A stretch of DNA of 44,393 nt from Thermodesulfobacteriota bacterium (GCA_034718555.1 JAYEMW010000346.1:1-44393), one strand, 5' to 3'. Positions 9,006-17,634 are shown, numbered from the stretch's first letter. Numbers and translations are program-made. Notes: generated by a model from the letters alone, not told the origin.

Positions 9006-9914
9006 TCAAACTTTAATGGCATACAGAAGGTGCTCTCCGGACTTACCTTTTAATCTCGCGCGATACATTTTATCGGGCACTACCAACTCCTTTATTTCCT
9101 CATAGGCTGATTGTGAAATCAGCAGTTGCGTGCCAAAATCCTTATTTGACGTTTCTATCCGGCTTGCCATGTTAACTGCGTCTCCAATAGCGGAAACTTT
9201 ACTCATCATGCCGGTATCAAAACTTCCGACAATGACTTTTCCAAAATTAATTCCTGCCCTTATCCCGAAAGAACGGCCGTATATTTGATTGAGATAAGCA
9301 TTGAACTGAATCAAGGCCGTGTGCATTGCTCGAACTGTATTAATAGCATCTAATACAAGGTTTTTGCTATCTTCTATTACCCCAAACAATGCCAATATAC
9401 CGTCTCCTGCCACATCGCTGATAATGCCTTTGTGTTGAACAATAATATCGTTCATAGTTTGATAGTATCGATTTAAAACATGCACCACGTCATAGGCAGG
9501 CAAGGCCTCAGCAAATTGGGAGTAGTTTTCGATATCAGTAAAGAGAATCGAAAGATCTTTTTCTTGTCCAAGCTTGGTGCCGGACGTATCTCCGAATTGC
9601 TTTAATATGATTTTTATATCCAGGTCATCAACAACTTGACGTCTAATAGCAATATTTCCACGTATTTTTGTTTGGCAGGCAAGTCGAATATTTTCAGGTA
9701 ATCCAAGTTTGTCGGCTAACTGCTTTTCTTTTTCATTCCGAGGCAGACAGTTGTCCAATCCATCGATAACATAGACCCGGCAGGTTGAACATCGGGCATT
9801 TCCCCCACAAACATGAATGTGGTTGATTTTAGCCTTGAGTGTGGCCTCTAATATTGTGCTGTCCGGTGATGCAAAAATTGTTTTGTCGTCTGTTTGAGAG
9901 AATATCTTGTACAT
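9006..9914 (-). CDS. [2Fe-2S] ferredoxin domain fused to class III adenylate/guanylate cyclase domain
   Basis: The N-terminus has C-x5-C-x2-C...C (VCGGNARCSTCRV...LACQT). The C-terminus has cyclase motifs: LFTDIENYS (metal Asp), VAGDGILALFG (metal Asp), IRAGINFGKV and IGDAVNMASRIE (Asn/Arg). Confidence 0.85.
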   Translation of the reverse strand: MYKIFSQTDDKTIFASPDSTILEATLKAKINHIHVCGGNARCSTCRVYVIDGLDNCLPRNEKEKQLADKLGLPENIRLACQTKIRGNIAIRRQVVDDLDIKIILKQFGDTSGTKLGQEKDLSILFTDIENYSQFAEALPAYDVVHVLNRYYQTMNDIIVQHKGIISDVAGDGILALFGVIEDSKNLVLDAINTVRAMHTALIQFNAYLNQIYGRSFGIRAGINFGKVIVGSFDTGMMSKVSAIGDAVNMASRIETSNKDFGTQLLISQSAYEEIKELVVPDKMYRARLKGKSGEHLLYAIKV

Positions 9915-10310
9915 TACCTACCCCGATTTTATATGAGTACACAAGATGATTACTATAGATAACCTCAATAGCGCAAGATAATTCCATATTGGCCCCTATG
10001 GTCCTCCGGCTTATGTGAATGAGAGATAATTAATCATTTTAGAGTCTTAGTGTCTTTGTGACTTTGTGGCTGTACTAATACAAAAAAAGTCAAATCGGCG
10101 AGGTGTTTTTTCTCTTGCATGTAACTTTGTTGTTCCGTTAAGTCATTTCAGCATAGCGGGATGCATGAAAGTCGAGCTGCCCGGAAAAGATGCGTCGATA
10201 GAATAGGTATGGCCCAAAACAATATATTAAAGGTGTATCGGGTCCGGGCAGCTCGGTTATGAGAAATGCATATCTTTTTTTAGAAAAGTAGTATAAAGGA
10301 TGAACTATTA

Positions 10311-10520
10311 TCATCTATTAATACAGTATCTTTGCCCACGATACCAGAAACATATTGGACTTCCGCTATACCATACTGCCTGATCATATGTATTTGAAGG
10401 ACCTGGAAGGATATCAGGTTTCTCATCAGGCGGTACAGTTTCATCGTGTGAATCTGTAACCTCTATATGTCCATCTCCGAATATCTTGATACACATATAT
10501 TCACTTTTTTCATTTGCCAT
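10311..10520 (-). CDS. hypothetical 69-aa protein (3 Cys, acidic N-half, aromatic/basic C-half)
   Basis: ATG is preceded by GAGGAGAAAAAAA. It lies 128 nt downstream of, and on the same strand as, the FecR-TPR-barrel gene. No signal peptide or known motif was recognised. Confidence 0.45.
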   Translation of the reverse strand: MANEKSEYMCIKIFGDGHIEVTDSHDETVPPDEKPDILPGPSNTYDQAVWYSGSPICFWYRGQRYCINR

Positions 10521-10648
10521 TTTTTTTCTCCTCTACGTTTTAAATTTTTAAATTAGATAAGCGATGACCTTCTATATCCAATTTAGGTCAAACGCACCCT
10601 TGTATTTTTTATATTCACCTCCTTTCTCCTTTTTTTGCTTAAAATTAT

Positions 10649-13600
10649 TTAAAATGACAGCGTTAACTTGAGTAGAATTAGTCGATCCGGCGCTATTCGA
10701 GGGTTTCCAGGATCAGTGTCCTGAAAATTAAATTCCTCGTTTAACAGGTTTTTGCCTACCACGCTGACAAGGCCATATCGTTTGGGTAAACGGTAGCTGA
10801 TAGAGGTGTCAATGATCCAGAATTGGTCATCTCCTGGGTCAATTGAGTAGGTAAATTCTTTAGGAACTATAAAGTTGCCTTCCTGGCTTAAGTAGGTTGC
10901 CTTCAAGGAAGCGCTGAATCCGCATGGATGGAAGTATCGAATACCAATGGGAATCCGATGGGTGCGTAGCTTTTCAAATTCCTCAACACCTATGAACCCC
11001 TCTGATACATCCCTTTCAAATCGCTCGTATAGATATTCAGCGCTCAACGATAACCAGGTGAATGGGGTCCAGTAAAGGTATGCCCGACTCATCCTTTCCT
11101 CCCAGTCGCGGTGAAAAACGGGGTCCGGCACAGTGGGGTCTTTAAACACTACGTCAAGGTCTCTAAAAGACAACTCGGCCCCGACATAGATGTTGTAAGA
11201 AAATCCGTGGTCTACGGCAAGGCCATATCGCCATGCCTTATCACCTTCGGCGCCAAAAAAGAACTGATTGAATCCGGCCACTTGTGTTGGCTCAATACTG
11301 GGGTCAGCGTTTTGTCTTGATAATATCGGTCTCTGCAACGTCCTGAAGGCAGCCGCCCTTAAGACAGTTGCAGGAGCAGGACTCCAAATCAACCCGAATT
11401 TTGGATTGAATTGGTTACAGTCTTCATCTTTAGATTCCCCTTTTAGAAAATCCCCGCTGCCCCCAATTGTTAAACTGAGGTTCTCTATGAGATCAATGTC
11501 TGAGTATAAATAAAGATTGCTGTATTTTGTTTCATCATCTTCTTTTATAGGAAATCCTCCGTAATCAGTTGTTTCAATCCCATCTAATTTACGATGTCCT
11601 GCGCCGCCGGTTATATTAAACCGTTTGGAATGAAAAAGGTATCGGACTTCGCCTGTGTAGTGATCTACGTCACTATCAATGGCAAAAAAACCTGGTATAA
11701 CATCTGTATAAAGATTTGCATTTTGGTAATTAAAAGAGGCTATGATATCAGATCGAGGTGTAAACGCATGATGAAAACCAAGCCTTGTGGACTGTACCTG
11801 TTCTTTTTGTCTTAAGGTTGGTGTAAAGGATTCATTAAAGATGATTTCAAGATCTCCTTTTTCGCTTTCTGTATAACGAAATTCCCCTTGAATGCTTGTT
11901 TTATGGTTAAGGTTTATCTGGGCGAAAGCATTGTAAATGTTTTGCTCCAAGTCGTTGTTTTCACGAAACCCATCGGTTTTGTAGTGGAATTGACCTAAGC
12001 TGTAGGAGAATTTATCTAAAACAGCAGATAGGACTATTTCGTCCCCTATTGTTTGGTTACCGCCAATGACTCCGCACCCTTGTAATGCAAATCGGTTTCT
12101 ATTAAAGAGTGGGTTAAATTCGGTAAAAGAGGGATCTGTTGGGCCGGCGCCCTCCAGTATGAACAGATTGCTCTCTGCAAGCTGTGGTTGAACCGGAGTT
12201 ATGTTAATTGGCTGAAGAAGTTGGGACTGGAGCAGTTCGCTAACCCTGGCGATTTCATGCCTTGGCAGGGCACTGTATGAGTCTGCCAAAAACCTATGGG
12301 CAGAATAGTTTCCTTGATCAAAACTAAGTGATTTCCAGCCTTCTACCAGCGCAAGCTGATTAAACCCAAGGTCGCCATAAATACGGGCCAAACCGGCGCT
12401 ACGTGCTGCCAGGTCCTGATCTAACATTAGACGAGATCGGTAGACCGCCCGGTTATCATTCAACTCTATGGATTTCTGTAAGTTATGCAATGCCTCGACT
12501 GGACGATTTTTGGTCTGGTTTCGAATTGCGTCATAAAAATAGGATGTAGGATCAAGGGGGTCAAGTTTTTTGGCAATGGAAAATTGATCCATAGCCGGCT
12601 TATCACGTTTTTCTTCAAAATATGCCTTACCCAGATAGCTGCGCATAAGTGAATTGTCCGGGTCGAGGCTTACAGCAATCTCAATCTCGCTCCGGCCTTC
12701 CTTTAGATCACCCTCGCGGATCTTTGCCAGCCCGAGACCGAGCCGAGGCAAAGGGGCTGCCTGGTCTAATTCAATAGCCTTTTTAAAGGTATTCTTTGAA
12801 TCCTTGGTTTTTATCTGTGTAAGATAGGCAAATCCTAACACAGTCTGTGAGTGAGCAATATTGGGATTCAATGAAACAGCCCTTTGTGCTGCATTAACAG
12901 CTCTATCGAGATCACCCTCAGATAGATAGAGTTCTGCCAAACGCGCTTGTGCAAGGGCATTATCCGGGGCTGCTGCTACTGCCTTTTGAAGACAGGCCAA
13001 TGCACCTTGAAGATCATAACCGGCTTGTCTGGCATAAGAGAGCGCAATTTGTGAGGCAATAGAATTTGGAGCCCCCTTAACAGCCTTTTCTGCGAGGATA
13101 AGGGCCTTATCTTTATTATTTTGTGCCACTGCTATGATTGATTGAAGAGAAAATGCAAGGCTATTAGATTTATCAGCAATTAGGGCCTTTTGAATATTCG
13201 ACTTTGCCTCATCAACCCGCCCAACAGATAGTAGCAACGCAGCGCAATAGGTAAAAAAACGTGGATCGTGAATATCTTTTGGGACCTCTTTAAGGATAGA
13301 AAACGCCTTTGTAAGGTCACCGTCCCAGTAAGCCTCTATGGATTTTCTAACTATTTTCTGCCACCTTATTTCGTTGAACTTAGGAAAATCGGATGTACTG
13401 TAGTAAAAAATATGCGGGTAATAAAGGGCCCATTGAACTGAATCTCTGGGATGGACTATCATATATGGAGTAGGTTTATGATTCTTCTTAACCATAGACG
13501 ATTGTCCGCTTATCATGGTGATGCTTCCGAGCTCATTATTAGCTAATACACGTCCTTTGAAAACTGACAGAAAGGTTTTACTGTCATCAACCTTAACAAA

Positions 13601-14029
13601 GAACTCTGTGCCCTCTATTGATGCATTAACAAAGGGTGTAATCACCTTTAGGTTTGTGGGAAAGCGGCTGAAAAAATTTACAGCGCCAATGATAAGTTTT
13701 ATCAAAGAGGTTTGTTTTTTCTTTAATGTTGAAAAAACTATAGTTGTGTTTTGATCGAGGCGAAGGATAGTTTCATCTTGTAGAACAATGGCTGCCCTGC
13801 TTTTCTCCTGAACACGGATCATATCGCCAGATCTATACGTATCATTTAATTTAACTGATATCCATTGCGTTTCCCCTGATCTTTGCGCCTGAACACTACC
13901 TTGTACAGATACAACCCTGGCCACCCATTTATTATGTGTTTCTGCAGCCGCATCTGCATTTGATAGGCTACTCAATAACACAATCATTAGTATTGCAAGA
14001 ATTAAGTGCAAGTTTTTACACTTTTTCAT
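10649..14029 (-). CDS. secreted FecR-domain / TPR-repeat / C-terminal outer-membrane beta-barrel fusion protein
   Basis: I prefer ATG 14029 (MKKCKNLHLILAILMIVLLSSLSNADA signal peptide, GGGGGAGAAAA SD) over the track start at 14071. A FecR-like beta-rich region follows (VSVQGSVQAQ...GDMIRV...AAIVLQDETILRLDQNTTIVF). About 350 aa of TPR-like repeats come next. The last ~480 aa have an alternating beta-strand pattern ending in ...LLKLTLSF, and the terminal Phe is an OMP signature. Confidence 0.75.
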   Translation of the reverse strand: MKKCKNLHLILAILMIVLLSSLSNADAAAETHNKWVARVVSVQGSVQAQRSGETQWISVKLNDTYRSGDMIRVQEKSRAAIVLQDETILRLDQNTTIVFSTLKKKQTSLIKLIIGAVNFFSRFPTNLKVITPFVNASIEGTEFFVKVDDSKTFLSVFKGRVLANNELGSITMISGQSSMVKKNHKPTPYMIVHPRDSVQWALYYPHIFYYSTSDFPKFNEIRWQKIVRKSIEAYWDGDLTKAFSILKEVPKDIHDPRFFTYCAALLLSVGRVDEAKSNIQKALIADKSNSLAFSLQSIIAVAQNNKDKALILAEKAVKGAPNSIASQIALSYARQAGYDLQGALACLQKAVAAAPDNALAQARLAELYLSEGDLDRAVNAAQRAVSLNPNIAHSQTVLGFAYLTQIKTKDSKNTFKKAIELDQAAPLPRLGLGLAKIREGDLKEGRSEIEIAVSLDPDNSLMRSYLGKAYFEEKRDKPAMDQFSIAKKLDPLDPTSYFYDAIRNQTKNRPVEALHNLQKSIELNDNRAVYRSRLMLDQDLAARSAGLARIYGDLGFNQLALVEGWKSLSFDQGNYSAHRFLADSYSALPRHEIARVSELLQSQLLQPINITPVQPQLAESNLFILEGAGPTDPSFTEFNPLFNRNRFALQGCGVIGGNQTIGDEIVLSAVLDKFSYSLGQFHYKTDGFRENNDLEQNIYNAFAQINLNHKTSIQGEFRYTESEKGDLEIIFNESFTPTLRQKEQVQSTRLGFHHAFTPRSDIIASFNYQNANLYTDVIPGFFAIDSDVDHYTGEVRYLFHSKRFNITGGAGHRKLDGIETTDYGGFPIKEDDETKYSNLYLYSDIDLIENLSLTIGGSGDFLKGESKDEDCNQFNPKFGLIWSPAPATVLRAAAFRTLQRPILSRQNADPSIEPTQVAGFNQFFFGAEGDKAWRYGLAVDHGFSYNIYVGAELSFRDLDVVFKDPTVPDPVFHRDWEERMSRAYLYWTPFTWLSLSAEYLYERFERDVSEGFIGVEEFEKLRTHRIPIGIRYFHPCGFSASLKATYLSQEGNFIVPKEFTYSIDPGDDQFWIIDTSISYRLPKRYGLVSVVGKNLLNEEFNFQDTDPGNPRIAPDRLILLKLTLSF

Positions 14030-14042
14030 TTTTCTCCCCCTT

Positions 14043-16301
14043 TTATTTATTATCCAGACAAACCAAGCCATCCCACATTTCCCCCGGAGGGTTATGCCTA
14101 TATTTTTCGCAAAACTCTAAATAAAAAGTAGAAGGACCATCGTCTTTATTTATTTTTGTAGATTCATAAAACATCTTTATTGCCTCTTCCCAGGATTGCC
14201 TCGTATAGGCGCTAAGAGCTTTAGAAAAGGTTTCGCAAAGTTTTCTTTGTTTTTCATTAGATTTTTCAACGAGGCAAAGTAATTCATGAACGATAATAGA
14301 TCTTGATTTTCCGGCCAGGAGAAACTTGCCAAGTCTTCTTGTTAGAAAGCCATTTAGTTGGTAGAGTACATCTTCAGAGACCAGTATACGTGTGCCAAGA
14401 TATTTATTCAGTCCCTCTAACCTTGAAACTGTATTGACAATGTCCCCAACAGGGCGATACTCATAATGGTCAATGGCGCCAATATTACCCATAGACATTT
14501 GTCCTGAATGTAAGGCTATACGAGTTGGAAGTTGAAAGTCGCCTTGGCATTGATTAAATTGACATACCGCCTTTGCAATACCTAATGCTGCAAGGCAGGC
14601 CTTATTTCTTAGAGTGGTGTCAGGTTGTGTTGTTGACCATAATGCAAGCATAGAATCCCCTATAACGTCTGAAACATACCCGTTGTATTCCTTTACAGGC
14701 TTAAAAGCTAATTTATAGTATTCATTCATAAAACTACTGAGTTCCTTTGGATTCATAGCCTCTGATAAAGCAGTGTATTGTTCTGCATCTGTCATCAAAC
14801 AAGCGCCATAAACAATTTGACCTTCTGTTTTGATATCCGACATATTTTTCACTAATTGATCTACTATCTTATCAGGCAAATAGTATTCAAGGGCCCTTCT
14901 GGTATTTTTTCGTTCCCTGTTTGTATCGAAGTATTCCCATGACACCGCACCAAAGAAGGCAAAGGGCGCTTGAAAAAATATAGGGATAACAATTGGATGC
15001 CAAATGCCAGTATGCTTGAATTGATAATAAGCAACAAATAAATAAAGTGTACCTAACCCAGATACACTAACAGCTGAGATGACAGGAGAAAAAAGAAGAC
15101 AAAAAAAGCCCAGCGCCATACCCCAAAGAAAAATAGTCGAAAGGTGAGAGAAAAGACTGAGCGACTGGACGGGCATGTCCTCTAACAAATTTGCGAATGC
15201 CGTTGCTGCAATCTCAACGCCGCTAATATCTAAACCTAAGCCGCTTGACTGAGAAAAAACCGTATGAAAACCATCTTTTTGTTGTGGTCGTAATTGTTCT
15301 GAAAGTCCAACAAATATAGCCTTGCCGTTTAGTTGAGTTACCTTTTGACTTACAGGGGCTTTTTTCTTATTCTGTAGTATTTGATAATATGGAACAGTGG
15401 TAATAGTCCCAGGCGGCCCGTAGAAATTGAGATAGTGACTTTGTGGTCCCTGATACATCTTGATAAGGGACATGAGGAGTTGATTTTTTTTAAGGTCAAC
15501 AGGCTGTATATTTTGATCTTTCAAATTATCTAAGATTTTTTCAACAATCAATGGGTTGTTTTTAAAAATGTTTCTCAGCATCAATATGAGTTTTTTTACT
15601 CCTCTGGACTCTAAGATTGTATTCTTGTCAACAGGTAGCTGTTCAGTAAAAGATGGGGTAATTTCCTTCAACAATTGCACAAACTCATCATACACATCCA
15701 ATGCGAATATTTGAAAAGCCGCAACCGGTAAGGTAGGAGTATTAACAACGCCTGTTTTTATTAACCAGTATTGACTAACCTTAATGGGCACTTTTGGGAG
15801 GGGGAAGGGGGCTAAGGCAGCAGCGGCTTGAGCAAGTGTGGGGGCAGGTGATTCCAGTTTTTCAATACTAATCTCCCCTGTTTGGTTGCCTTTTTTGTCA
15901 ACCACGGGAATTGTCTCTTTTTTGAGGCATTCACATAAGACAACATTACCTGCCTTACTAACTGCTTTAGCGAGTAGATTATCGTATTTTGTTGAATGGG
16001 ATTTATCGAAAATGATATCAAAGGCAATAACTGAGACACCTTCTTTGGTCAGGTTTTCAATGAGTGTCGTATGAAGGGAGCGAGGCCATTTTTCCGGGTT
16101 TGTCGGCAGGGAGAGATTATCGGCTGTGGACTTGTCCATGGTTACTATAATGACTTCAGAAGGGGCTTTTCTTGGACCCCTTAGCTTAAATAGCAAACCC
16201 AGTCCCATATTTTTTTCAAGTTCAAACAGGGTAGGAATCAGGGTTAGGCCTATTAAACCTGTCATCAAACCCATGGTTACTGCCTTATAAAACCTTGACA
16301 T
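14043..16301 (-). CDS. CHASE2 extracytoplasmic sensor domain - TM - class III nucleotide cyclase
   Basis: There is an N-terminal TM helix, a ~350-aa periplasmic region of CHASE2 type, 3-4 TM helices, then cyclase motifs: LMTDAEQYT, VIGDSMLALW, RIALHSGQMSMGNIG, VGDIVNTVSRLEG. The stop lies 13 nt before the downstream ATG. Confidence 0.8.
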   Translation of the reverse strand: MSRFYKAVTMGLMTGLIGLTLIPTLFELEKNMGLGLLFKLRGPRKAPSEVIIVTMDKSTADNLSLPTNPEKWPRSLHTTLIENLTKEGVSVIAFDIIFDKSHSTKYDNLLAKAVSKAGNVVLCECLKKETIPVVDKKGNQTGEISIEKLESPAPTLAQAAAALAPFPLPKVPIKVSQYWLIKTGVVNTPTLPVAAFQIFALDVYDEFVQLLKEITPSFTEQLPVDKNTILESRGVKKLILMLRNIFKNNPLIVEKILDNLKDQNIQPVDLKKNQLLMSLIKMYQGPQSHYLNFYGPPGTITTVPYYQILQNKKKAPVSQKVTQLNGKAIFVGLSEQLRPQQKDGFHTVFSQSSGLGLDISGVEIAATAFANLLEDMPVQSLSLFSHLSTIFLWGMALGFFCLLFSPVISAVSVSGLGTLYLFVAYYQFKHTGIWHPIVIPIFFQAPFAFFGAVSWEYFDTNRERKNTRRALEYYLPDKIVDQLVKNMSDIKTEGQIVYGACLMTDAEQYTALSEAMNPKELSSFMNEYYKLAFKPVKEYNGYVSDVIGDSMLALWSTTQPDTTLRNKACLAALGIAKAVCQFNQCQGDFQLPTRIALHSGQMSMGNIGAIDHYEYRPVGDIVNTVSRLEGLNKYLGTRILVSEDVLYQLNGFLTRRLGKFLLAGKSRSIIVHELLCLVEKSNEKQRKLCETFSKALSAYTRQSWEEAIKMFYESTKINKDDGPSTFYLEFCEKYRHNPPGEMWDGLVCLDNK

Positions 16302-16914: not shown

Positions 16915-17634
16915 TTAATCGCCCAGGTAGGCTTTTTTGACCTGCTCGCTTTGTAGTAGCGACTCAGCAGTATCTGAAAGGGTACGTCCAGTCTCCATTA
17001 CGTATCCCATATCCGAATTATTAAGGGCCATATGAGCATTCTGCTCTACAAGGAAAATGGTCGTGCCTCGCTTCTTGATAGTAATGATTGCCTCGAAGAT
17101 AGTCTTGACCAGTTTCGGGGCGAGACCTAATGAGGGTTCATCCAGCAGTAATAGCAGAGGTCTGCCCATGATTGCCCTCTGGCCATGGCGAGCATTTGCT
17201 GTTCTCCACCGCTCAAGGTGCCACCTAACTGTTTTCCCCTACTTTTCAAGATAGGAAAGAACTCAAAGGCCCAATCATGATTCTTTGCAATCTCTGCCTT
17301 GTCCGAACGCAGGAAGGCTCCCATCTCTAAATTTTCAAGGGTAGTCATACGGGGAATATCTGCCGTCCCTCAGGGGTTTGGGCTACCCATCGGGCTGCGA
17401 CCTGTTCCGGTCGCAGATGCTGAATCGGCTCACCGTCAAGTAGTATTTTTCCTTCCGCAGGAGGTTGAACGCCAAAAACAGTCAGGAGCGTCGTAGACTT
17501 GCCTGCGCCGTTTGCGCCTATTAGGCAGGCAATTCCGACATGAGGTGTGGAAAGAGAGATACCCTTAAGGGCGTGAATGTTTCCATAATATGTATGCACA
17601 TTTTCAAGTTACAAGATAGGGATTTCGCCATTCA
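16915..17634 (-). pseudogene. livF: branched-chain amino acid ABC transporter ATP-binding protein (LivF-type), disrupted
   Basis: Walker A (GANGAGKST), signature (LSGGEQQMLA) and Walker B (LLLLDEPSLGLAP) are spread over three frames. Two 1-nt frameshifts lie in C and G homopolymer runs near 17345 and 17175. An in-frame TAA occurs in MNGEIPIL*LENVHTYYG. No livGHMK partner is nearby. Confidence 0.8.

Follow-up and report, generated by a model that had tools for sequence, protein, structure and literature searches.

CHASE2 is, to our knowledge, among the most widespread bacterial sensor domains without a known ligand, and the present analysis concerns a unit of three genes in which a CHASE2-class III nucleotidyl cyclase is encoded beside a secreted FecR-TPR-barrel protein and a small cysteine-containing protein. 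The unit is found on a stretch of DNA of 44,393 nucleotides from a Thermodesulfobacteriota bacterium (GCA_034718555.1 JAYEMW010000346.1:1-44393), which is referred to, in its whole length, as the window. The closest described system is the NsrA-CyaK pair (with CyaD1/D2) of Sinorhizobium meliloti, which is reportedly owed to the work of Garnerone et al. 2018 (J Bacteriol 200:e00019-18) and Tian et al. 2012 (PNAS). In later papers, NsrA appears as an outer-membrane beta-barrel protein needed for signal perception by CyaK and CyaD1/D2 (PMC7529298, PMC13001267, PMC10463352), and the papers citing the original work place its barrel portion at amino acids 600-1200. The window unit is probably a distant relay of this NsrA/CyaK type, in which an outer-membrane barrel would control a CHASE2 cyclase through a periplasmic FecR/TPR arm; the core idea is already known from S. 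meliloti, and the locus is not in itself a new kind of system.

Two further systems bring together CHASE2 and FecR-domain proteins. A gene cluster of the Campylobacterota, known by comparative genomics only, comprises a CHASE2 adenylate cyclase, a phosphodiesterase, an outer-membrane protein with a FecR domain, and a TPR protein (PMC9239204). The linkage of a CHASE2 cyclase to a FecR outer-membrane protein and TPRs is common to both, but the FecR outer-membrane protein and the TPR protein are separate in the cluster, as described, and fused here, and no phosphodiesterase gene adjoins the window unit. In the “BiofilmReg” operon of Burkholderia, a response regulator, a LysM-FecR periplasmic protein, and a CHASE2 histidine kinase are encoded together (PMC5192318), so that a FecR-domain envelope protein is again genetically coupled to a CHASE2 sensor, although the output is a histidine kinase with a response regulator, and the FecR protein is soluble or peptidoglycan-binding (LysM), with neither TPRs nor a barrel. 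An initial reading of the window, made from the sequence alone (the sequence-only reading), had stated that no characterised example of such an arrangement was known, which is wrong, given that NsrA/CyaK has the same architecture and is homologous, and that the FecR-CHASE2 linkage had been published.

The FecA-FecR-FecI system shares with the window unit a 22-strand barrel of the TonB-transporter type and a FecR-family periplasmic domain that carries information inward; by Pfam, however, the window unit has no Plug, STN or anti-sigma domain and no extracytoplasmic function (ECF) sigma factor, its FecR domain forms part of the barrel protein itself, and its output is a nucleotide cyclase. In FecR proper, the FecR domain comes after a cytoplasmic anti-sigma domain and a transmembrane helix. 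The Cya2 protein of Synechocystis, a CHASE2 guanylate cyclase (PDB 2W01), is likewise a CHASE2-linked class III cyclase with a residue other than lysine at the purine-selecting position, and 2w01 was among the best structural-sequence matches; Cya2 differs in its Glu/Gly pair, which also occurs in a subset of the barrel-linked cyclases, whereas the window cyclase has Asp/Arg. We know of no outer-membrane partner of Cya2.

The unit consists of three consecutive open reading frames (ORFs), and its genes, domains, and spacers are the following:

14043 to 16301, minus strand: inner-membrane CHASE2-class III nucleotidyl cyclase, 752 amino acids (ORF, Pfam, hydropathy, BLASTP to CyaK)
15111 to 16253, minus strand: CHASE2 sensor domain, amino acids 17-397, predicted to be periplasmic (PF05226; hydrophobic segments on either side)
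14301 to 14798, minus strand: class III cyclase catalytic domain, amino acids 502-667 (Pfam Guanylate_cyc 1.5e-11; alignment to the bPAC and IlaC structures)
14030 to 14042, minus strand: intergenic spacer of 13 nucleotides that supplies the barrel gene with its Shine-Dalgarno sequence, GGGGGAG (sequence read)
10649 to 14029, minus strand: secreted outer-membrane protein, 1126 amino acids, distant NsrA homologue (Pfam, AlphaFold2 model, Foldseek, hhalign)
13463 to 13921, minus strand: FecR-type beta-sandwich, amino acids 37-189, predicted to be periplasmic (Pfam FecR; all-beta in the AlphaFold2 model)
12215 to 13450, minus strand: TPR-like helical repeats, amino acids 194-605, predicted to be periplasmic (TPR Pfam matches; about 12 helical hairpins in the model)
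12095 to 12214, minus strand: linker, amino acids 606-645, containing LLQPINITPVQPQLAESNLFILEGAGP (near-invariant columns in the alignments A1 and A2; no regular secondary structure in the model)
10649 to 12094, minus strand: 22-strand barrel resembling TonB-dependent transporters, amino acids 646-1126, with the stop codon (DSSP strand count, Foldseek, Pfam)
10521 to 10648, minus strand: spacer of 128 nucleotides between the barrel gene and the mini-protein ORF, holding the Shine-Dalgarno sequence GAGGAG (sequence read)
10311 to 10520, minus strand: mini-protein gene, 69 amino acids, with a C-terminal Cys-bracketed aromatic hairpin SPICFWYRGQRYCINR (ORF; gene called in two relatives)

The cyclase gene ends in the codons for LVCLDNK and a TAA stop, which are followed by the 13 nucleotides AAGGGGGAGAAAA and then by the ATG of the barrel gene at 14029. 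This tight spacing suggests that the cyclase and barrel genes are co-transcribed, and they are possibly translationally coupled. A second in-frame ATG at 14071, which would give a protein of 1140 amino acids, falls inside the cyclase gene, and the start at 14029 is also the one chosen by database gene calls and by homologues. Four genes of the window (cyclase, barrel protein, mini-protein, and a downstream ferredoxin-cyclase fusion that is treated below) are also present in a related contig, L087, and in the comparison of the two sequences the cyclase and barrel genes are under purifying selection, with ratios of nonsynonymous to synonymous differences (pN/pS) of 0.05/0.24 and 0.06/0.21, respectively; the last 110 or so nucleotides of the 128-nucleotide spacer are about 88% identical there, as read by eye from an alignment. 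The layout given by the sequence-only reading, i.e., three tight genes on one strand, the start at 14029, and a 69-residue cysteine-containing ORF with its own Shine-Dalgarno sequence 128 nucleotides further on, was recovered in full, as was the lack of a sigma factor, a Pfam scan of 26 ORFs of the window having found none. Scans of the window with Rfam and for tRNA genes returned no match; promoter-like sites were in modest excess (28, against a mean of 20.8 and a standard deviation of 3.7 in shuffled sequence), and terminator-like sites were fewer than the shuffled mean.

The link to S. meliloti emerged from a tblastn search of the 1126-residue protein against plasmids, which gave a match on pSymB to a 1190-residue “FecR domain-containing protein” whose stop codon overlaps the start of cyaK by one nucleotide. 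This neighbour of cyaK is taken here to be NsrA, the protein reportedly described by Garnerone et al. 2018. Pfam finds in it FecR, TPRs, and a weak match to an outer-membrane barrel, i.e., the same architecture as in the window protein, and the two align collinearly by BLASTP, at 3e-23 over the FecR and TPR portions and 1e-06 over the barrel, and by hhalign over 997 columns (99.8%, E 1.5e-27). The window cyclase, for its part, matches CyaK at 2e-25 (BLASTP). In both organisms, an outer-membrane protein of about 1100-1200 amino acids, with a signal peptide, FecR, TPRs, and a C-terminal barrel, is thus encoded beside a CHASE2-class III cyclase, both proteins are homologous over their full length, and a sigma factor is involved in neither case. 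The differences are that CyaK has Lys/Ser where the window cyclase has Asp/Arg, that the Cys-hairpin mini-protein gene of the window has no counterpart at the S. meliloti locus, and that the host is a plant symbiont there and an uncultured anaerobe-type bacterium here. NsrA reportedly responds to plant or ribosomal protein uL2 as its cue.

On the opposite strand of pSymB, just upstream of the nsrA-like gene (L002:6250-6795), a membrane protein of 181 amino acids annotated as DUF5706 is encoded, which Pfam assigns at 9.4e-12 to PycTM, a transmembrane domain of Pycsar effectors, and which could be an effector of the NsrA-CyaK pathway responsive to cyclic nucleotide monophosphates (cNMPs).

The association of the two genes is widespread. 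Among the 600 pattern matches listed for GTDB species representatives, at least 533 encode a relative of the barrel protein, in more than 10 phyla and mostly in uncultured anaerobes. A sample of 80 related loci, also from more than 10 phyla, comprised Desulfobacterota, Nitrospirota, Planctomycetota (Brocadia, Scalindua), Rokubacteria, Binatia, Dadabacteria, Gamma- and Betaproteobacteria, Poribacteria, Spirochaetia, and others, and a CHASE2 gene, sought by hidden Markov model (HMM) within 6 kilobases (kb) of the barrel gene, was present in 61 of them. Of the 19 loci lacking one, eight have an upstream flank shorter than 1.6 kb. In 45 loci, the gene directly upstream of the barrel gene, on the same strand, is the CHASE2 gene, with a median gap of 55 nucleotides, and in 11 the CHASE2 gene is downstream on that strand; three independent look-ups of precomputed Pfam annotation gave the same gene order in genomes of Nitrospiraceae, Scalinduaceae, and Desulfobacula. 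The adjacency on which the sequence-only reading relied is thus conserved, and, as judged by its recurrence in dozens of genomes and many phyla, the arrangement is far beyond chance. The barrel family itself counts 5439 proteins at E <= 1e-5 in a word-indexed search, with over 100 full-length ones at identities of 55-90%; its members are 55-60% identical across phyla, and the closest named relatives among the matches listed come from metagenome-assembled genomes of Thermodesulfobacteriota and Desulfobacterales, at about 60% identity. By these sequence comparisons, the NsrA/CyaK pair of S. meliloti stands as an outlier within a family that is large and strongly conserved.

The output domain of the CHASE2 partner varies: in three loci a CHASE2-SpoIIE/PP2C protein takes the place of the cyclase (L038 and L052 by Pfam, L045 by a sequence motif). 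Since the partners include PP2C proteins and one CHASE2 protein with a degenerate cyclase domain, the barrel tracks CHASE2 and not the output domain, and among comparative arguments this output-independent co-occurrence speaks most strongly for the barrel protein as the input partner of CHASE2, which would then read an outer-membrane protein and not a small molecule.

The three CHASE2-SpoIIE/PP2C genes (L038:10289-12484, L052:7821-9965, and L045:4974-7190) stand past both the barrel gene and a gene for a secreted Cys protein. In a member of the Scalinduaceae (L004:5475-7703), the cyclase-like domain kept by the barrel-linked CHASE2 protein lacks both metal-binding Asp residues as well as the Asn/Arg pair and is hence a pseudo-cyclase, and the gene directly upstream encodes a HAMP histidine kinase, which suggests a rewired output. 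In a Nitrospiraceae genome (CP070632.1, L003:12031-12795), a gene for a metallo-beta-lactamase/class II phosphodiesterase/Apyc1-like protein follows the cyclase, the barrel gene, and a small ORF, with a similar gene at the same position in L018; the former recalls the phosphodiesterase of the Campylobacterota cluster.

The 1126-residue protein has a signal peptide, predicted by hydropathy, followed by the FecR-type beta-sandwich, the TPR superhelix, the conserved linker, and the 22-strand barrel, and ends in a C-terminal Phe (TLSF). Pfam matched FecR at 2.2e-14 (amino acids 70-161), many TPR families, and TonB_dep_Rec_b-barrel at 9e-12, and the AlphaFold2 model, built with 119 homologues, has a predicted local distance difference test (pLDDT) of 86.5 and a predicted template modelling score (pTM) of 0.84. 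The secreted FecR-TPR-barrel architecture named by the sequence-only reading is hence borne out, with the minor correction that the TPR region spans about 410 amino acids (194-605) in the model and not about 350. The barrel strands of the model span amino acids 646-1125 and are joined by short turns at one end of the barrel and by longer loops at the other, and the best Foldseek matches in the PDB are TonB-dependent transporters, from FptA at 3e-16 through FpvA and BtuB to FecA at about 1e-13. No Pfam match to the Plug domain PF07715 was found in the protein, which has just the 40-residue linker ahead of its barrel, and no TonB box turned up in general scans, which included no motif search aimed at it. 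Two long barrel loops (amino acids 899-930 and 1094-1116) are highly conserved, which is unusual for surface loops, and this conservation suggests, on the model, that either these loops or the linker fill the lumen of the barrel; the linker may act as a plug. NCBIfam gave just sub-threshold partial matches to TPR and FecR models.

The cyclase has the usual CHASE2 topology by hydropathy, with a first transmembrane segment at amino acids 8-26, a periplasmic domain, and further transmembrane segments between 390 and 455, and its cytoplasmic part consists of the catalytic domain and a helical tail of about 85 amino acids. The match to CHASE2 is strong (E 1.1e-27, 97.7 bits against a cut-off of 26.3), which, together with the Guanylate_cyc match and the hydropathy, upholds the CHASE2-transmembrane-class III cyclase of the sequence-only reading. 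The metal-binding Asp505 and Asp549 are kept, together with Arg594, Asn623, and Arg627, all of which align with catalytic residues of bPAC and IlaC, and the cyclase is, by its residue content, predicted to be catalytically competent and not the dead enzyme that would have spoken against a nucleotide output.

The substrate-specifying positions are another matter, given that the alignment to solved cyclases places Asp545 where Lys is expected and Arg616 where Asp or Thr is expected, so that the adenine-selecting Lys and Asp/Thr/Ser pair of a cyclic AMP (cAMP) producer is not present. In the specificity model of class III cyclases, Lys and Asp/Thr read N1 and N6 of adenine, and Glu and Cys/Gly read N1-H/N2-H and O6 of guanine. 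This model is reportedly that of Tucker 1998, Sunahara 1998, and Linder 2005, and the adenine-selecting residues of bPAC are K197 and T267. Under the model, an acceptor (Asp or Asn) followed by a donor (Arg) would be complementary to guanine rather than adenine, which would make cyclic GMP (cGMP) at least as plausible a product as cAMP. The pair is not peculiar to the window: among the 61 barrel-linked CHASE2 proteins, D/R occurs in 17, N/R in 13, and the Cya2-like E/G in five, the last mostly at loci with the cyclase gene downstream of the barrel gene, and Lys is found only in S. meliloti CyaK (K/S) and in one Nitrospiraceae protein (K/D). An exhaustive search with the window cyclase domain gave 1930 clusters at 50% identity (E <= 1e-30), and a regular-expression tally of the best 150 of these counted 85 with D/R, 13 with N/R, and none with Lys, nearly all of CHASE2-cyclase length. 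As far as such tallies can tell, the Asp/Arg pair is a trait of a large cyclase subfamily. NCBIfam has no model for the window cyclase, and a literature search on the D/R substrate pair returned nothing relevant. The matches of PADLOC PycC to this cyclase and to the ferredoxin-cyclase downstream were set aside as generic class III similarity and do not speak for a Pycsar system.

The third gene is less readily placed. The mini-protein has no signal peptide, transmembrane, or hydrophobic segment by hydropathy, and no match in Pfam, NCBIfam, or PADLOC; its AlphaFold2 model is of low confidence (pLDDT 66). A single-sequence search found just two relatives, both annotated genes of related contigs (74-75% identity), and a profile search found 18, all named “hypothetical”. 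Its C-terminal half is under purifying selection in three comparisons (pN/pS 0.013/0.207, 0.039/0.103, and 0.026/0.207), and its N-terminal half is fast-evolving, with pN equalling or exceeding pS in two of them. Across the 80 loci, small ORFs that begin no more than about 270 nucleotides past the barrel stop codon very often end in [N/S]-P-x-C, an aromatic-rich strand, G, and a C near the C-terminus. An iterated HMM of this hairpin tail matched in 22 of 77 loci (E < 0.01), always adjoining the 3' end of the barrel gene, and in none of about 10,800 other ORFs or of the reversed decoys; a regular expression for the hairpin matched 29 of 122 adjacent ORFs and 143 of 6429 others (odds ratio 13.7, p = 1.6e-20). 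Most of the remaining loci encode larger proteins there, which bear a signal peptide and 6-26 Cys and of which some end in the same hairpin, and most of the small versions of 60-110 amino acids, the one of the window included, have no signal peptide. As judged by these comparisons, the Cys-hairpin mini-protein is a real, fast-evolving third component of this branch, and it would, at best guess, serve the barrel or the CHASE2 module as an accessory partner or as a ligand. The lack of a signal peptide, the non-canonical substrate residues of the cyclase, and the downstream ferredoxin-cyclase were all absent from the sequence-only reading.

Directly past the barrel gene of L030, L036, L046, L051, L063, and L077, in the place of the mini-protein, proteins of 240-360 amino acids with 19-26 Cys are encoded, nearly all with a predicted signal peptide; an N-terminus of the form ATC.(A/S)GYTYKCP is common to several of them, and no Pfam match was obtained where tested.

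The relay proposed here would operate as follows. The 1126-residue protein would be exported and its 22-strand barrel inserted into the outer membrane, leaving the FecR-type and TPR domains to hang in the periplasm; a cue from outside the cell or from the envelope would act on the barrel and be relayed through the FecR/TPR arm to the periplasmic CHASE2 domain, and the relayed signal would alter the cytoplasmic production of a cyclic nucleotide. The basis of this reading lies in the architectures of the proteins, the full-length homology to the S. meliloti pair, the linkage across phyla, and the intact catalytic residues. The sequence-only reading had likewise proposed the outer-membrane protein, or something that it binds or imports, as the input of CHASE2: the first part matches the genetics of S. 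meliloti, where NsrA is needed for CyaK signalling, but import through the barrel found no support.

Several observations weigh against the relay. Eleven loci with enough flanking DNA carry no CHASE2 gene, and some of these have HAMP-PAS-GGDEF-EAL or glutaminase-STAS-cNMP-binding proteins nearby instead, so that the barrel can have other partners. The identity to NsrA and CyaK is just 23-26%, the gene order is reversed (the cyclase comes first in the window), and the cyaK neighbour is equated with NsrA from its size, architecture, and adjacency to cyaK. No cNMP receptor gene was seen nearby among the window ORFs scanned, and the product of the window cyclase is uncertain because Asp545 and Arg616 replace the canonical substrate residues. 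The nature of the cue and of the product, and the physical contact between the FecR/TPR arm and CHASE2, are what we infer only.

The same barrel may be read as a machine of export or of import. That the main task of the FecR-TPR-barrel protein is to translocate the Cys-hairpin or Cys-rich protein encoded next to it, in the manner of Slam, BcsC, and PgaA, with the CHASE2 cyclase monitoring or regulating export, is improbable, even though a gene for a Cys-containing protein lies directly past the barrel gene in most loci, often with a Sec or lipoprotein signal peptide, the barrel has no plug domain, and the layout of periplasmic TPRs plus barrel is exporter-like, with weak matches to TPR_Slam (0.0044, 17.9 bits against a cut-off of 35.2), BcsC, and PgaA. 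These matches are confined to the TPR region and far under the family cut-offs, and the barrel, with 22 strands and the likeness of a TonB-dependent transporter, is unlike those of the exporters, whose families call for a barrel of 14-18 strands and for TPR matches above cut-off. Furthermore, without a signal peptide the window mini-protein and most of those of 60-110 amino acids cannot reach the periplasm by the Sec route, and NsrA acts in signal perception without such a neighbour gene (PMC7529298). Uptake of a nutrient through a TonB-dependent barrel, with FecR-like surface signalling in which the cyclase replaces the sigma/anti-sigma pair, would account for the barrel fold, the TonB_dep_Rec_b-barrel match, and the presence of a FecR domain; it is nevertheless very unlikely, given that Pfam finds no Plug or STN domain and no TonB, ExbB, ExbD, or ECF sigma gene in the 26 window ORFs scanned, that the FecR domain comes after a cleavable signal peptide and not after an anti-sigma domain and transmembrane helix, and that the surface loops are unusually conserved across phyla, unlike those of nutrient receptors.

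A mere neighbourhood of genes with no functional link, the mini-protein being a chance ORF, is hardly credible, as it is contradicted by the barrel-CHASE2 linkage in 61 loci, by the purifying selection on the C-terminal half of the mini-protein, and by the matches of the hairpin HMM solely beside barrel genes (22 there, none elsewhere, none in decoys). A bolder version of the relay would make the mini-protein a self-encoded ligand or co-receptor, docking to the barrel, which lacks a plug, or to the FecR/TPR-CHASE2 relay, and would have the Asp/Arg (or Asn/Arg) cyclases produce cGMP or another nucleotide other than cAMP; it is doubtful as a whole, but, if it were true, no CHASE2 pathway before this one, that of NsrA excepted, would have had its input partner defined genetically, and the cyclases would form an unrecognised specificity class of bacterial class III cyclases.

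With the NsrA/CyaK-type relay as the preferred reading, what this branch adds to the S. meliloti pair is a conserved third gene, the D/R class of cyclases, the plug-less 22-strand barrel, and the CHASE2-PP2C variants. We came across no description of a Cys-hairpin gene past the barrel gene, of the Asp/Arg pair of a cyclase subfamily, or of a plug-less barrel resembling TonB transporters. Two leads can be put to the test, namely the Cys-hairpin protein encoded beside the barrel gene and the Asp/Arg pair, which predicts a nucleotide other than cAMP.

Downstream of the unit, 396 nucleotides past the mini-protein ORF, lies a second cyclase gene:

9006 to 9914, minus strand: soluble 2Fe-2S ferredoxin-class III cyclase, 302 amino acids (Pfam Fer2 2.3e-9, N-terminal; Guanylate_cyc 4.5e-17)

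Its substrate pair, Asp/Ser, is also non-canonical. The gene has the same position in the close relative L087 and was not found in the other 80 loci, and, since it is linked to the unit in close relatives only, the Fer2-cyclase is probably a separate unit. A heterodimer of the CHASE2 cyclase and the Fer2-cyclase was considered but found no support, as each of the two proteins retains both metal-binding Asp residues and carries Asp where Lys would stand, which leaves them non-complementary, and the Fer2-cyclase is absent from the other 80 loci.

Between the mini-protein ORF and the Fer2-cyclase gene there is a perfect inverted repeat of 13 nucleotides (CGAGCTGCCCGGA / TCCGGGCAGCTCG, at 10173-10185 and 10243-10255, with 57 nucleotides between the arms), whose arms are partly conserved in L087, where extra sequence is inserted between the arms; the repeat might represent a terminator or else a small mobile or repeat element. 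Three consecutive minus-strand ORFs of 84, 73, and 84 amino acids in different frames (16915-17599), situated within the 1.5-kb gap that precedes the cyclase gene upstream, together resemble a LivF-type ATP-binding cassette transporter ATPase (GANGAGKST, LSGGEQQ, and LLLLDEPS), and have the appearance of a frameshifted pseudogene or of sequencing errors. Finally, on the plus strand at 30-1668, an N6/N4 DNA methylase gene (751-1668) is preceded by an ORF of 239 amino acids with no Pfam match that ends one nucleotide ahead of it, and the two may be a restriction-modification pair.

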